64,000 nucleotides of DNA from assembly GCA_976226885.1 (NCBI GenBank), contig OZ320321.1, forward strand, positions 19,530,001 through 19,594,000, written 5' to 3'. This document shows positions 29,700 through 61,235 of the stretch, in pieces. A program made the position numbers and the translations under genes. The notes under the pieces were generated by a model. The model had not been told where the DNA came from and searched no databases. It saw only the letters and a program-made list of their open reading frames with translations. Origin of the DNA: Iphione sp. A-MEVVRFRX5 (Eukaryota). Numbering within the stretch: the first letter of the stretch is position 1; each line of letters starts with the position of its first letter.

Positions 29700-31433
29700 A
29701 AGACCACCACCACCACCACATAGCTACACCGGGTTCTGTCAGTCTCTGTGACTGCTGCCGCTGCTCATTGAGAGAGCGAGAGAGAGACGGAGCTGCTCGC
29801 CAATCTGTCAGTGGTGGAGCAGCTCGGCCAGAAGCTGTGGATGGGCGCGTGTTGAAACCCGAGTCTCCGCCTCGCCTCGCCGCTGTTGCTGCCGCCGCTG
29901 TTACTTGCCGACTCCAGAGAACTCAAAACCTAAAGTGCCGCCACCACCGCCTGCACACCCTGTCGAGTCACTCCGACCGACCGAGATCCTGAAGACACAG
30001 GAGGCACCGCGAGCTAGTGTGGTAGTAGTAGTAGTAGTCACTATACAAGTTGACACGTGGGATTTTAGGTGGGAGCTGTTCTGACTTTCGGCGGACAGCT
30101 CTTCCTATACGATGCAGGAGCCACCATGTAGAGAGGATTAACGTCGGTCGGGGAGGAAGGAGAAGAAGAAGAAACAAACCTATATAGGAGGATGATCCTT
30201 CACTGCCCCACCGTGGTAGATCGGTCCGTGTCTACCCGGGCCGGTTGAGGACCTCGACGGCGCTAAGGGGGGGGGGGGGGACAACGGACAAAAACCACAG
30301 GAGAGATCAGCCACAGGAGAGATCAGCAGCCAAGCACACCCCGAGCCACCTCCAACCACCGCCGCTCTTACGACCAGTGACTATCATTATATCGTGTATA
30401 TCTGCAGAGCGACTGGCGGATTCTGCTGCTCCTGTACAGTCACATCTCCCCCTCTGCCGCCGCTGCCGCCTCTGCTGGAGCTGCTGGGGCTGGAGTTCAT
30501 TGCAGTTCATAACGAAGACAGCCACCTAAAGCGGTTTACTCCCCCCCCCCATCCCCACCCCCCTTGGGATGCTCTCTAGCTGTTTTGCGGCAGGGAGGGA
30601 GGGAGGAGGAGAGATGAGGACACACAGCCGCCTCCACGGGCGCCCCGGAAGGGGGGCAGGTAGAATATCCTCCTCCATTCGCTGCCCACCAGGCGGCGCT
30701 GGGATCAATAAAGGTGCAGTGGGCGGGGCGTAGGAGGAGGAGGAGCGGGAAGATTGGCCCCCTGCCGTGCTGTTTGTTGTCTTGCGGACCCCTGTAAGGC
30801 ACGTGGTAGCGCTCAACAGCGACTGCGCCGGCTCGAGCAAAGCGATTCCGCCACGGCGGGACACACCGGGAGCCACCGGCCGCTGCCGCCGCCGCCGCCG
30901 CCGGGGGAAACGGTCGTTTCTGCCGGGCGAGGGAGAAGCATTTCTCACACGGACGGAGGAGAACACGGTTGCATGTCAGTGGACTATCCGCCCCTGCAGT
31001 TAAGGACCAGAAGAGATGGGAGCCAGTGGAGGTTGACGGCAATGAAAATGTTTGTTGGCCACACACTCAACATGTTGGTATCCGGTTGACTTACTGGGAC
31101 TTAGGGAGAACGGGCTGATACAGATAGGAGGCAATGAAACGAGCTGGATGTGGTGACAAAATAAGTACGCTCTGTATATCCCCTTGGAGTCACATTCCAG
31201 AAAATGAAGCCAATGGGGTGAGAGTAAAAGACCACAGCGCACCAGCAGGCCGAGGTCATCAATAAGGTAACACGGCTCAGGAGTTCACGCTGCAAAAGTG
31301 AGCTGCGCATCATCGGCAAACGCTCTATAGGGTTCACACCCATCAAACGGAGCTGTAGGGTTATCAGATACAAGACACGACACGTGGTCTTCTTAATAGA
31401 TTGTCGTCAAGAGACCCACACACAAAAAAAGTC
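29700..31433 (+). promoter_or_regulatory. GC/CpG-rich putative promoter and 5' UTR region of the chitinase
   Basis: CpG-dense with (GCC)n runs and a GAGA tract (~29770), directly upstream of the inferred start codon. The TSS cannot be located from sequence. Confidence 0.45.
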
Positions 31434-31998
31434 ATGGAGCAGCGGCACGTTGGCCAGACCAACCACCACCACCACCACTACGAGGAGCAGCATTTGGACT
31501 TGCTCACTCACATCACCCTCAATGGTCAGTCGGGCCTGGGCCTGGAGAGCTGGAGGAGGCCTTTCTGGGGCGAGGGCATATTAGCGACGGCGGCGGCGGC
31601 GGCGGAGGGTCACTCTGGCCTACTACTGGAGAAGAAGGAGGGGGGCGGGGGGGTCATGCCCCTACACGACCCCTACCATGACCTTCACGCCGCCTCGCAT
31701 TCTGAGGGAGGAGGACGGCGACGACGAGGAGGAGGAGGAGGGGTAGGAGGGGGGCGTGTAGTTAACTGCCTGCATGGTTTACTCGCCCCCCTCGCCCACC
31801 TTTGGCGCCTCCGCCTTCTCCTCGTCCTGAGACGGCTGTTACCCGGCCGGCGCTGCGGTCGCGCCGTCGCCCTAATCGCCGCCGTGGCCGTCCTGGGACT
31901 ACTCCTGGATATCGCTTTGTTCGATGGCTCCCTGTTGAAGACACTATCGGCTCTAAAGAGCGCCGGGATGAGTACGCTGACCTTCAAGGCTATGGCAG
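31434..31998 (+). CDS. Chitinase exon 1 (inferred): cytoplasmic tail and transmembrane anchor
   Basis: AAAGTCATGG start context; 188 GC3-rich codons; hydrophobic [20 protein letters not shown] after an Arg-rich stretch. Donor GCAG|GTAAAT is phase 1, matching the exon 2 acceptor (G+AT=Asp). Linkage across the 13.7-kb intron is inferred. Confidence 0.7.
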
Positions 31999-55900: not shown

Positions 55901-56039
55901 CCAGGCCTGGTACGTGCGGCGCCACCTCCTCGGGGGAGTGATGGTCTGGTCGCTGGATCTGGACGACTTCACCGGCTACTTCTGTCGCGACGGGCCCTTC
56001 CCGTTGCTGCGCACCCTGGCGGACACGCTGAACAGGTAG
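31434..56039 (+). CDS. GH18 chitinase, 8 coding exons, 566 aa, N-terminally membrane anchored (gene span)
   Basis: join(31434-31998,45718-45906,48633-48889,50368-50492,51313-51436,52672-52857,54565-54684,55905-56039) = 1701 nt. All introns are GT-AG with compatible phases (1,1,0,2,0,0,0). Motifs [42 protein letters not shown] and WSLDLDDF are present. Confidence 0.9.
32976..33284. mobile_element. PIF/Harbinger-like MITE, 309 bp (family B), intron 1
   Basis: Left TIR GGCCCTGTTCACATACAACCGG; right TIR (reverse complement) GGGGTTGTTCACATATAACCAG; TAA at 32973-32975 and 33285-33287. Confidence 0.75.
40411..40869. mobile_element. Degenerate PIF/Harbinger-like MITE related to 1042-1604
   Basis: Right end CACACATGGAAAGCTGGCC|TAA; internal CACACATGGAAAGCACCT shared with ~1505-1521; weak left TIR GGCTTAATATCCATGTGCGCATG after TAT. 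Confidence 0.45.
43232..43415. mobile_element. Degenerate Tc1/mariner(pogo)-like MITE
   Basis: TA|CAATGGAGACTCTTTTAACGACCACC versus right end (reverse complement) CAGTGGAAGCTTTTCTGTAAAGACCACC; right TA not preserved. Confidence 0.45.
43993..44324 (-). mobile_element. MITE, 332 bp (family E), intron 1
   Basis: ~34-bp TIRs GGCC(C/T)AAACAAAAAATA.CTGTGTTTCC(G/A)GTAAC; subterminal CGACCGACCCT; TAA/TAT flanks. Confidence 0.8.
45718..45906 (+). CDS. Chitinase exon 2 (start of GH18 domain)
   Basis: TTGCAG| ... |GTAGGT; encodes [42 protein letters not shown]... Confidence 0.97.
46081..46415 (+). mobile_element. MITE, 335 bp (family E), intron 2, inverted relative to 43993-44324
   Basis: Left TIR GGCCTAACCAAAAAATATTTGTGTTTCCGGTAAC; right TIR GTTACCGGAAACACAGAACTTTTTTTAGGCC|TAA. 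Interior matches the reverse complement of the first copy (ATTTGA(T/A)ATAAGTT...ATTAAAATCT). Confidence 0.8.
48633..48889 (+). CDS. Chitinase exon 3 (catalytic DxxDxDxE motif)
   Basis: CTCCAG| ... |GTAGGT; encodes KVLLSVGGW...[17 protein letters not shown]. Confidence 0.98.
49134..49235. repeat. (GAT/GAC)n trinucleotide microsatellite, intron 3
   Basis: About 34 triplets, directly visible. Confidence 0.95.
50368..50492 (+). CDS. Chitinase exon 4
   Basis: TTTCAG| ... |GTGAGA; encodes [10 protein letters not shown]...[25 protein letters not shown]. Confidence 0.95.
51313..51436 (+). CDS. Chitinase exon 5 (absent from the ORF track)
   Basis: CCTTGCAG| ... |GTGACA; phase 2 start; encodes [41 protein letters not shown]. 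Confidence 0.96.
52672..52857 (+). CDS. Chitinase exon 6 (start of chitin insertion domain)
   Basis: CCTCAAG| ... |GTTGGT; encodes [30 protein letters not shown]...[10 protein letters not shown]. Confidence 0.96.
54032..54507. mobile_element. Non-autonomous CMC/EnSpm-like element, 476 bp, intron 6
   Basis: Termini CCCAGCTAACAC and (reverse complement) CCCAGCAAACAA; 2-bp TSD CT (54030-54031, 54508-54509); repeated subterminal CTACAA(C/T)(A/G)TTGTAG palindromic motifs. Confidence 0.75.
54565..54684 (+). CDS. Chitinase exon 7
   Basis: TTCTCAG| ... |GTTGGT; encodes [40 protein letters not shown]. Confidence 0.96.
55905..56039 (+). CDS. Chitinase exon 8 to the first stop (TAG 56037-56039)
   Basis: CGCCAG|; encodes [44 protein letters not shown]. 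Confidence 0.95.
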   Translation, partial: AWYVRRHLLGGVMVWSLDLDDFTGYFCRDGPFPLLRTLADTLNR

Positions 56040-56258
56040 CAGTCACTCCACGTCAGGATCGTCGCCGGCCCTGACTTCCCCCCGCCGCCTGCTGCCGCCG
56101 CCGACGTCGCCGACGACCGGAAGCTCGACGCGCGCCGTGAGTTGGAGGAGGAGGAGCGCCGCCTGGAGGCCGAGCTGAGGGCGTGGAGTTGGCGCCTGCG
56201 CAGAAACGTCTCCCGAACGCCGGCCAGCCAGTGGATCGAACCGGGCGACGAAATGTGA
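56040..56258 (+). CDS. Candidate in-frame readthrough extension of the chitinase (72 aa, then TGA)
   Basis: Encodes QSLHVRIVAGPDFPPPPAAAADVADDRKLDARRELEEEERRLEAELRAWSWRLRRNVSRTPASQWIEPGDEM; by hand GC3 is 62/72 versus GC2 38/72; stop context TAG CAG TCA. Confidence 0.6.
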   Translation, partial: QSLHVRIVAGPDFPPPPAAAADVADDRKLDARRELEEEERRLEAELRAWSWRLRRNVSRTPASQWIEPGDEM

Positions 56259-57714
56259 GTTGCAGCAGTCGCAGCGACCACTGCGCCACCTGGTCTCCTC
56301 CAGTTGAGGAGAAAGTGGCCTCCCCCCTCCCCCCTCCGCCGCCCCGGTGATTACTGGACGCACGTACACAGGTGGTGTACTGTGATATGGGTTGAAAAGA
56401 ATACCCTGGAGGACGAGAAACTTAGGCCCTATGCACATGTACGCGATTGAATCTTTTTGGAATCCCATCCGAAAGCAAAAGGACTGCCCATCGCGTGAAG
56501 AAACCAGCTGCAGGCGCTGGTGTCTATTCACTATTGAAGTCTATGAACATCGCATCTGATTGCAAAAGCAACCTGTTCTGCACCGATCAGGCTTTTCGGA
56601 GTTGGAGACAATTGTGGAAACATTGTCTACATTTGAACAGCTCCATTGTTTTAAGAAGACTGGGTAGAAATCGACATGGCTACCACATACATGTGCATAA
56701 CGCCTTACCGGGTTTGGCTTCGTAGGACTGGCATTTGATGTGATAAAGCCGGATGGACACAATTACATCAATTTCCGCAAAGGTCTCAAATGAAAAAAAA
56801 AAATCCAAAATGTCTTGTGATCTGTGGCAGGTGTTTAATACCGAAAAATTAATGTGCTTTCAGTCAGCTGGTGTAGATTTATATATGTAAGGATAATTTA
56901 AAACCTAGGCAATTATCTATTAAAAACGATTGATTATAGTGAACTAAGGAAAATAATATCTGTGAGAGAGTAACATGTATATATACACATGGATACTGAT
57001 GCCCTGTAGCGCAACTGTGATAACATTCAAGGGTTATCGATATGGAAGCTGTTACGATTAAACGTTATTAATATTTCTCTACCTGTATACATCACTTCTG
57101 TTTGCCATCTTATATACCCTCCCGACTACACCCAATCACTATCGACTTTCGGTACTGAATCGTAAATCAAATTCTACAGAATCATTTCCGAAGATTTAAT
57201 CGATAGTAGGGAATTGATTAGGGAACGTCCTTTTCTTGTTCTCTAATGCTGATTCATTTAAATAAATGTTCAAACAACTTAGTAAAAATACAGTTGAACA
57301 ATACATGAATCTACATATCTCACTCTATTTATTTATTTGTTTATTTATTTTCGCCCTAAGAGGATTCCAACTAAATTACTGGCCTTGTAACTCGTGACTC
57401 TGTCTGGCTCCCCCCACGACACATGTCAAGTAAACATTCTACCTACGAGATTCCCCGGTGACATATTGACTTACGATGGCTGCCGTGAAATGCCTTTAAA
57501 GAACCGCCGAGGACAGGTATTGGCAGGTTGGCCATGCGGGATGCATCCGGACCAACTGCCTGATGGGCACATTGACCGTTCCCACCAGGGTCCACGCCGC
57601 TGCTGCCCCGGCTAGCCTATCTGGCCGCATGCGTGGGGGGGGGGACGGCACCATGCAGCCTTTCCTGCCACACCAAGCTTCCTCTAGATACTACCGACTT
57701 CACTTCCTCCAACC

Positions 57715-58150
57715 CCCCACTCCGAGCCCCCACCCTGCCTCCTCAGTCACCTTAACTCTCCCTCCTTGCCTCACCTCTACACGCTACCATCACTACACAC
57801 AGACTAACAACCTCCCCAGCTTGCTGCCCCCCCCCATATTTCCTGGTGACCTCCAATCCCCACCCACCCCTACCCTGCCTCCTCAGTCGCCTTAACACCC
57901 CCCCCAGCCACCTCCCTGCACATGCTACCATCAGTACACACAGACTACAACCTCCCCAGCTTGCCCCCCCCCCATTTCCTGGTGACCTCCAACCCCCACC
58001 CACCCCTACACCACCTCCTCAGTTGCCTTAACTCCCGCCTTGCCTCCCCTCTACACGCTGCCATCACTATACGCAGACTAACAACCTCCCCAGCTTGGCC
58101 CCCCCCGTACTTCCTGGTGACCTCCAACCCCCACATCCTCCTTACCCCTG
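57715..58150. repeat. C-rich tandem repeat, ~135-140-bp unit, about 3 copies
   Basis: ACAACCTCCCCAGCTTG at 57807, 57947 and 58081; each copy contains TTCCTGGTGACCTCCAA. Confidence 0.9.
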
Positions 58151-58160
58151 CCCCTAACAG

Positions 58161-58272
58161 GATGTCGCTGATGGACGCTTCCCTGGTGGCCATGAAGGGA
58201 ACATCTGAGACCCGGCCGGTACCGGAACCGGAAAAAACCGAAGCGGACGCCTCTTTTACGAAGCCTATTTGA
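58161..58272 (+). other. Candidate alternative terminal exon of the chitinase
   Basis: Acceptor CTTACCCCTGCCCCTAACAG|G; the phase-2 frame is open for MSLMDASLVAMKGTSETRPVPEPEKTEADASFTKPI*; AATAAA downstream at ~58500 and ~58571. Confidence 0.3.
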
Positions 58273-58868
58273 GTGACGGCAGATGCGTAAAGTGGAAGGG
58301 GGCCGGGGCAATGGAAGAGAGCAACCAACTCGGTGGTTAAGGAAAGATCATACCCAGGGAGGCAAAAGGAACTGCTCTACAGATAACGATGATTTCACGT
58401 GTATCGCATTGGTCATTTATCTTTGGTTATGACAGAGAATTTATAACGAACGGAAAAGCAATATTAATCCAGGACAAGCGAGATCTTGATTTCAGAAACA
58501 ATAAATATAACATTGTTATGGGATACATAATCGTTTTGATAACCATTTACGTCACGTTTAATAACCAAAAATAAATCGCAATCTCTATTAGATTAAGCTT
58601 CAACGCAAAACAGCCTCAAACAACGCAGATGGTAATGGTGGAATTAAAGACACCAACCAATGAAGAGCAGTCGATACAGGAGAGGGACCGTGTCTTAAAG
58701 GCTCGCGCTTGTATTGCTGGCAGATCGACAATAGTCCACCCAGCCGGCGTGGACATTCACAAATATCGTATACAGTTGACTCTCACTCAAAGACGAGATT
58801 ACAAGGGAGACCAGATCACAACGGAGACCAGATTCTGCCAGTATACCAAACACACACACACATATATA

Positions 58869-60513: not shown

Positions 60514-61235
60514 CTCACTGACCAGGTCACCTCAGTAATACAACCAGAGCAGATGGAACTAAATCTAGATTTTATACTCTAGATCCCCCTCACTAATGAG
60601 GTCACCTCACTAATACAGTCAGTTCAGATGGAACTAAATCTAGACTTTATACTGTACATTCCCCTCACTACTCAGGTAACCTCAGTAATACAGCCAGTTC
60701 AGATGGAACTTAATCCTTACATTATACTGTAGATTCCCCTCACTAATCAGGTCACCCCAGTAATACAGCCAGTTCAGATGGAACTAGATCTAGACTTTAT
60801 ACTATATATTCCCCTCACTAATCAGGTCACCTCAGTAATGCATCCAGTTCTGATGTATCTGAGGCCCTTTTGACATGTATCGGTACCAAAGTTATGCTAA
60901 TGGATCTGAAACCATATTCCTATGAAATCAAGACACCCCTTCAGATGTGTATGAACTTTACAGCTATGCTTCCATATGCAGAAGGTGATTCCATCCAGGA
61001 CAGATTTTCTACAGTTATCGATGAATAGCTCATAGACTCCTATAATGAAATGCATGTGGTTACCATATGTAGCTTACGAACACTACGAGGGGTAGCTATG
61101 CTTTTGGATGCATAAGCATAACTTTGGTATGGATTCATGTGAAATGCTCCTAAATCTGTAACTTATATTTTAGATTCCCCTCACTAATCCTGTCATCTCA
61201 GTGATCGAAACTAATTTGGACGGAACCATTGGTGA
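60514..61235. repeat. 75-bp minisatellite, about 5.5 copies, last part split by a MITE
   Basis: CCCCTCACTA at ~60585, 60661, 60736, 60811 and again at ~61176; units contain CAGTTCAGATGGAACT. Confidence 0.9.
60863..61150. mobile_element. PIF/Harbinger-like MITE, 288 bp (family D)
   Basis: Left TIR GGCCCTTTTGACATGTATCGGTACCAAAGTTATGC; right TIR (reverse complement) GGAGCATTTCACATGAATCCATACCAAAGTTATGC; flanks TGA/TAA at a CTAAATCT site of the 75-bp unit. Confidence 0.75.

Follow-up and report, generated by a model that had tools for sequence, protein, structure and literature searches.

A chitinase gene of an annelid, Iphione sp., carries a TAG where its catalytic domain ends, and we argue that stop-codon readthrough is the best single explanation for it. 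We put the probability of this reading at about 0.5; this figure, like the likelihoods that we attach to the rival explanations, is a judgement and not a computed value. If we are right, then the TAG would be read through part of the time, and the gene would likely give a 566-amino-acid anchored enzyme together with a longer form that is likely the minor one. The window that we analysed is a stretch of 64,000 nucleotides (contig OZ320321.1, positions 19,530,001 to 19,594,000). The features that the argument needs, all on the forward (+) strand and numbered from the first letter of the window, are these:

31434-31998 (+): exon 1, with the ATG (start codon inferred), a His/Gly-rich N-terminus, and one predicted membrane anchor at about residues 142-165
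45718-45906 (+): exon 2, start of the GH18 domain (gene model)
48633-48889 (+): exon 3, with the intact DxxDxDxE catalytic motif (Pfam PF00704, E 1.5e-21)
50368-50492 (+): exon 4 (gene model)
51313-51436 (+): exon 5 (gene model)
52672-52857 (+): exon 6 (gene model)
54565-54684 (+): exon 7 (gene model)
55905-56036 (+): exon 8 up to the stop, with 44 codons (GC3 41/44) for the last strand and helix of the GH18 barrel
56036-56056 (+): possible phase-2 donor CAG/GTAGCA (4.1 bits); an in-frame GT..AG of 21 nt runs from it to the AG at 56055-56
56037-56039 (+): first stop, TAG, about 2 residues past the last residue of the crystallised chitotriosidase domains
56040-56045 (+): CAG TCA hexamer, which fits the CARYYA and CA[AG]N[UCG]A leaky contexts
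56040-56255 (+): in-frame, coding-like extension of 72 codons (Pro/Ala stretch, acidic helix, Trp/Arg end)
56052-56075 (+): small hairpin, 12 nt past the stop, no stabler than shuffles (z -1.05 to +1.2)
56109-56213 (+): predicted 35-residue alpha helix within the extension (pLDDT 83-90 in mid-helix)
56256-56258 (+): second stop, TGA, inside a possible phase-2 donor AAT/GTGAGT (GT at 56255-56256, 7.8 bits)
57261-57266 (+): first AATAAA past the stop, which could serve for polyadenylation if exon 8 is the last one
58161-58272 (+): best nearby phase-2 acceptor with a 36-codon frame, a candidate exon 9 (2.6 bits), without a homologue in the genome

The gene matches the GH18 profile PF00704 and has the DxxDxDxE motif; from that motif only, we would predict chitinolytic activity. 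An earlier, sequence-only reading of this DNA had proposed products of 566 and 639 amino acids, and our eight-exon model, with GT-AG ends throughout, gives the same sizes (566 residues, the stop, and 72 more codons). That reading overlooked the predicted membrane anchor of the product, with a hydropathy peak of 2.75 at residues 145-163. With its single hydrophobic segment, the protein probably has type II topology, in which both the catalytic domain and the tail would face the outside of the cell or the lumen. Upstream of exon 1, codon scores give no coding signal. A long GC-rich stretch that precedes the start codon (29700-31430) contains several open frames, also without coding signal, and is probably promoter or 5' UTR.

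The genome has 15 other matches to the GH18 end exon, and the chitinase has six internal intron positions in common with its paralogues. The closest full-length database proteins are 47-50% identical to it, and it groups with a GH18-CBM14 protein from Lingula (support 0.95, FastTree, 56 sequences). Five GH18 chitinases with shared intron positions form a tandem cluster (G000:C19:33466000-33559000), with CBM14 exons for four of them. In another paralogue (G000:C11:48531001-48541000), possibly a retrocopy, a single frame of 736 codons spans the greater part of the domain together with four CBM14 repeats. Searches with the phylum-marker families PF00379, PF14830, and PF16915, which had no positive control, matched nothing and so turned up no arthropod cuticle family; the genome appears not to be that of an arthropod.

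What points to readthrough is, first, the stop codon and its context. On recount, positions 56031-56048 (+) read AAC AGG TAG CAG TCA CTC. The basic observations of the sequence-only reading were all reproduced: the TAG with its CAG TCA, the 72 open codons to the TGA at 56256-58, the counts of GC3 62/72 and GC2 38/72 in the extension and GC3 41/44 in exon 8, the TCA as the sole A/T-ending codon among the first ten of the extension, and a chance of about 1/512 for CARYYA at equal base frequencies. With realistic frequencies the match is rarer, at 1/849 by local composition and 1/1271 by the codon use of the gene. Furthermore, none of the 42 serines in the chitinase's main frame is encoded by TCA, and the 199 GC3-rich codons that we examined nearby include no YYA. 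The chitinase ends in the UAG-CARYYA of type I readthrough, and the DNA around the stop is single-copy in the 1.18-Gb assembly. Readthrough expects a leaky hexamer and a stop at the edge of the domain, while a nonsense change or an assembly error would need both by coincidence.

Mechanistically, we imagine that the CAG-TCA hexamer would weaken termination by eRF1 and that a near-cognate tRNA would decode the UAG. By known cases, the inserted residue would be Gln or Tyr. RNA structure appears to be unneeded. In the windows after the stop, no stem-loop or pseudoknot rises above shuffles (z -1.05 to +1.83), and an Rfam search of the stop region gave no match, which leads us to reject structure-stimulated readthrough (types II/III, hdc-like). 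Genome-wide reassignment of TAG can also be dismissed: there is no TAG inside 32 GH18 exon matches (there is one TAA, which comes from an intron).

When we scanned the genome for TAG-CARYYA within GC3-rich sequence, we saw no excess, with 97 sites as compared to 130 for a reversed control, although the scan pattern is insensitive and sees only TAG sites with nine G/C third positions. Of the 97 scored sites, only the chitinase stop had a known domain before it and a long coding-like frame after it. One TAG-CAGTTA elsewhere (G000:C10:61413428-61414261) follows a 109-codon gag-like frame and has only 20 codons beyond; it looks like a broken retroelement.

Second, the extension is coding-like, and in frame 0 only. 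We scored it with a codon model that was trained on the chitinase gene, the last exon of a neighbouring gene, and segments of the paralogues, with the tail left out of training. The tail scored +4.8 bits in frame 0, versus -35 and -49 bits in the other sense frames and -23 to -65 bits antisense, so frame 0 is the only positive one of the six. Beyond the TGA the same frame scores -21 bits, and thus the coding pattern ends there. The score is modest for 72 codons, with the first half of the tail at -2.0 bits; exon 8 reached +17.3 bits over 44 codons, but it is itself within the training set. A modest score is as expected for a readthrough tail, and equally for a decaying one. The openness of the frame is unremarkable by itself, as 26-30% of shuffles have an open frame of this length. 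On the other hand, the combination of periodicity and codon score was matched in 0 of 20,000 single-base shuffles. Block shuffles, which at 10-40 nt preserve the runs of triplets such as GCC and GAG, matched the score in 0.05-0.14% of cases (10-20 nt) or 0.4-1.5% (20-40 nt). The tail is also acidic, with 15 Asp and Glu residues where 4.3 would be expected (0 of 20,000 shuffles). Among 72 GC-rich windows (GC at least 0.62) from 504 kb of DNA, 17 score at least as high as the tail. Judged by their translations, each of the 17 overlaps an exon, and several of these exons were used for training.

Base composition tells the same story. By direct count, GC at the three codon positions is 54/38/62 of 72 codons in the extension and 28/20/41 of 44 in exon 8 ahead of the stop, and it falls to 43/37/41 past the TGA. 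As a control, the neighbouring GC3-rich gene goes from 54/35/65 before its plain TAA to 22/15/22 after it. In 14 of 14 paralogues, GC past the first in-frame stop is 0.29-0.48, without a third-position peak. The chitinase stop is therefore followed by a second, in-frame open reading frame with coding character, and a coding-like tail means that either translation continues into it or the ability to do so was lost recently.

We also considered what the tail might do. Between a Pro/Ala spacer and a Trp/Arg end, a single-sequence AlphaFold model, with a mean pLDDT of 65 overall, predicts a 35-residue helix, which is acidic and amphipathic. The tail would occupy the place of the Pro/Thr linker and chitin-binding domain of the paralogues, and it would tether or cluster the long form of the enzyme. 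The tail terminates in GDEM (56244-56255), which we take to be a loose and weak match to an ER-retrieval signal.

The leading rival is that a once continuous exon acquired the TAG by a young nonsense change, which would be either still polymorphic or fixed not long ago. The tail would then be a fossil C-terminus, and the change would be tolerated since the catalytic domain is whole; this would be an ordinary tolerated truncation. We consider it unlikely, but it is a serious contender. It accounts fully for the coding-like tail, a single base change turns CAG, TGG, or TAC into TAG, and at its end the tail has a strong phase-2 donor like those that close exon 8 in the paralogues. Young nonsense cases are described as a recognised false signal in readthrough work, in the part of that literature that we draw on (PMC5100048). 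Against this, a nonsense change needs two coincidences, namely the hexamer (about 1/850 to 1/1270) and a stop that happened to fall at the first codons past the domain among 73 tolerated positions. Also, the CBM14 exon that comes next in 11 paralogues is missing here, and we found no convincing further exon among 94 candidates.

No CBM14 exon was found on the same strand in the 128 kb downstream, where the best of 3260 local frames had E 0.28, while the control recovered 12 of 12 held-out paralogue domains at E <= 7e-8. So the chitinase lacks the C-terminal CBM14 exon of the GH18-linker-CBM14 genes, which argues against a freshly truncated member of that family. No second GH18 domain was found downstream either. 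Searches for relatives of the tail in Pfam, the Atlas, two word-based searches, and this genome found none. Among 1.84 billion representatives, none of the best 150 of 487 matches extended past query residue 70, and the three metagenome loci that we examined are not orthologues.

A second rival is that the TAG belongs to a splice donor, AG/GTAGCA at 56036. This donor might be used for distal splicing or to remove a 21-nt in-frame micro-intron (56036-56056), which would join the domain to the Pro-rich tail. The micro-intron would account for the stop, the odd TCA, and the tail at once, and of the in-frame acceptors in the tail, only the AG at 56056 scores above zero (4.8 bits). The phase and region of the donor agree with the exon-8 donor of the paralogues, three of which read onward into a phase-2 Pro/Thr linker exon and then a CBM14 exon. 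The genome does use AG/GTAG donors, and 10 of 14 paralogues have a GT donor that includes their first in-frame stop, with scores (-0.7 to 9.2 bits) that bracket the 4.1 bits here. Nevertheless, we think that splicing at 56036 is improbable. By a matrix built from 55 donors, it is weak: just 4 of the 55 real donors score as low, while 66 of 507 unused exonic GTs and 408 of 6698 random TAGs score as high. (We keep it as a possible donor because the exon-8 donors of the paralogues also get too low a score from this matrix.) A 21-nt intron would be far shorter than the shortest of 43 introns, at 214 nt. Distal splicing would leave the coding-like tail unexplained, as the introns of the paralogues are AT-rich at once, and under any splicing from 56036 the leaky hexamer would be due to chance. 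Alternative acceptors just after the TAG (56040) or the CAG (56043) score -5.4 and -7.7 bits and were rejected.

The second stop raises a related issue, which was missed when the 639-residue end was first proposed: the TGA sits in a strong phase-2 donor, AAT/GTGAGT at 56255. Only 8 of 314 TGAs in GC-rich context score as high, and GTGAGT occurs in 3 of 10 paralogue donors. As both stops are in phase-2 donor positions like the exon-8 ends of the paralogues, the tail may be part of an internal exon. But up to the next gene, we found no convincingly coding exon among 94 phase-2 candidates, and the best nearby one is at 58161 (2.6 bits). Under readthrough, then, the long form probably ends at the TGA at 56256, with 639 amino acids; splicing of the mRNA from 56255 onto a further exon seems to us possible but on the unlikely side.

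The region downstream has some features of its own. A 136-bp tandem repeat (3.1 copies at 57706-58134, within 57430-58350) is single-copy by DNA search and ends in the strong acceptor at 58160, and the stretch before it resembles a decayed zinc knuckle. A 75-bp tandem repeat with 4.6 copies lies at 60514-60855. Between the chitinase and the next gene are retrotransposon-like open frames, gag-like and zinc-finger-like (G000:C19 ~19604200-19609400). The next gene (G000:C19 ~19612405) is a convergent, minus-strand neighbour. By eye, it has exons that resemble sushi, EGF, and HYR domains; it also encodes a membrane segment and a Pro-rich tail, and its GC3-rich last exon turns into AT-rich UTR directly after the TAA.

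The remaining rivals seem weaker still. An assembly error at the stop codon is very unlikely. There is one assembly, with neither a second copy nor a second haplotype for comparison, but it is chromosome-scale (89 contigs, 1.18 Gb), the site is not a homopolymer, and an error requires the same coincidences of hexamer and domain edge as a nonsense change does.

We are just as doubtful of an ordinary stop with a GC-rich 3' UTR behind it, in which GCC and GAG runs or the shadow of an antisense gene would produce the periodicity. Triplet runs do occur in the tail, an open frame this long is common at such GC, and there is an antisense frame of 165 codons, which ends at a TGA opposite the TCA. However, block shuffles that preserve the runs attain the tail's score in at most 1.5% of cases, and the UTR of the neighbouring gene falls to 27% GC immediately after its TAA. 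We reject an antisense gene outright: the antisense frames score -23 bits or lower, the 165-codon frame has no match in Pfam, and the next minus-strand gene ends at its own TAA about 26 kb away.

Finally, A-to-I editing could convert the UAG to a tryptophan codon, and UAG is a favoured triplet for ADAR, but the stop region forms no long duplex (its best partner, at -36.9 kcal/mol, is weaker than that of 11 of 12 control windows), and we consider editing the least plausible of all.

Where does this leave readthrough? It stands as the best explanation, with several rivals weakened (antisense coding, UTR, altered code, editing, and alternative acceptors), but it falls short of a demonstration, as we found neither orthologues nor homologues of the tail. 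The prior is also low. According to PMC5100048, the well-charted cases of functional readthrough are those of insects and of a small number of vertebrate genes, and beyond Pancrustacea readthrough was not found to be abundant. A more ambitious account would be that an annelid's anchored chitinase has swapped a spliced linker and chitin-binding module for a helical tail that is reached by readthrough, with a conserved UAG-CARYYA switch at the domain edge, in an animal outside the arthropods, to control how much of the enzyme is free-ended and how much is tethered or clustered; the tail might also be spliced onward. We offer this whole account only tentatively. If it is true, then a clean lophotrochozoan case would widen the range of functional readthrough, and recoding at the lumen-facing end of a membrane enzyme would act as a domain switch in chitin remodelling. 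The mechanism is already known, and CARYYA-type motifs are already known in cellular genes of insects. What would be new is the host gene, a chitinase, and probably the phylum: in titles and the beginnings of abstracts, we found no readthrough chitinase and no nuclear readthrough gene from an annelid.

Among known systems, the closest match at the stop is the type I readthrough of tobamoviruses. CARYYA drives readthrough in tobacco mosaic virus, and the chitinase has the same stop and hexamer. Type I readthrough requires no RNA structure, as appears to be the case here too, and the hexamer is active in mammalian cells, where CARYYA is reported to give about 15% readthrough and UAG and UGA are equally effective (PMC4132726). 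The differences are that our case is a cellular gene of an animal, that a short tail would be added to a membrane enzyme, and that it is known from sequence alone.

The readthrough genes of Drosophila are the nearest cellular parallel. The sequence-only reading had contrasted the chitinase's hexamer with the UGA-CUAG of known metazoan cases, and this contrast was overstated: as described in parts of PMC13278127, a Drosophila screen recovered CA[AG]N[UCG]A from cellular genes, with CUAG in a smaller subset. Like the chitinase, these hits and dfr/vvl, in which UAG-C is reportedly read as Gln (PMC8417969), have C at +4 and A at +5. The same portions of PMC13278127 describe GC3 periodicity on both sides of the stop in high-tier genes, the first two following codons excepted, and tails that are rich in Glu, Asp, and Ala. 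The chitinase has this pattern, with periodicity broken only at the first two codons and an acidic, Ala-rich tail. On the other hand, 63% of the insect top tier is UGA, with G at +9 (PMC13278127, same portions), as opposed to UAG here. The Drosophila cases are also backed by conservation, ribosome profiling, or peptides, often with conserved RNA structures, whereas ours is a prediction from the genome. The portions of the main text of PMC13278127 that we draw on do not mention chitinases or annelids, although its supplements may list chitinases.

As for the enzyme, the 566-residue form resembles the insect group VIII chitinases, which have a membrane anchor and a single GH18 domain without a chitin-binding domain. 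The likeness is one of architecture, and the function of the group VIII chitinases is itself described as unclear in the part of PMC9574080 that covers them.

In its intact DxxDxDxE motif, the gene is like GH18 enzymes of the AMCase and chitotriosidase type (PF00704) and like its own GH18-linker-CBM14 paralogues; the six internal intron positions are in common with the paralogues. It differs in having a predicted membrane anchor after about 140 residues, no signal peptide, and no CBM14 exon. Human chitotriosidase also has a catalytic-only form, of 39 kDa, which is made by proteolysis or splicing. In the annelid enzyme, unlike in those chitinases, the short and long forms would arise by recoding.
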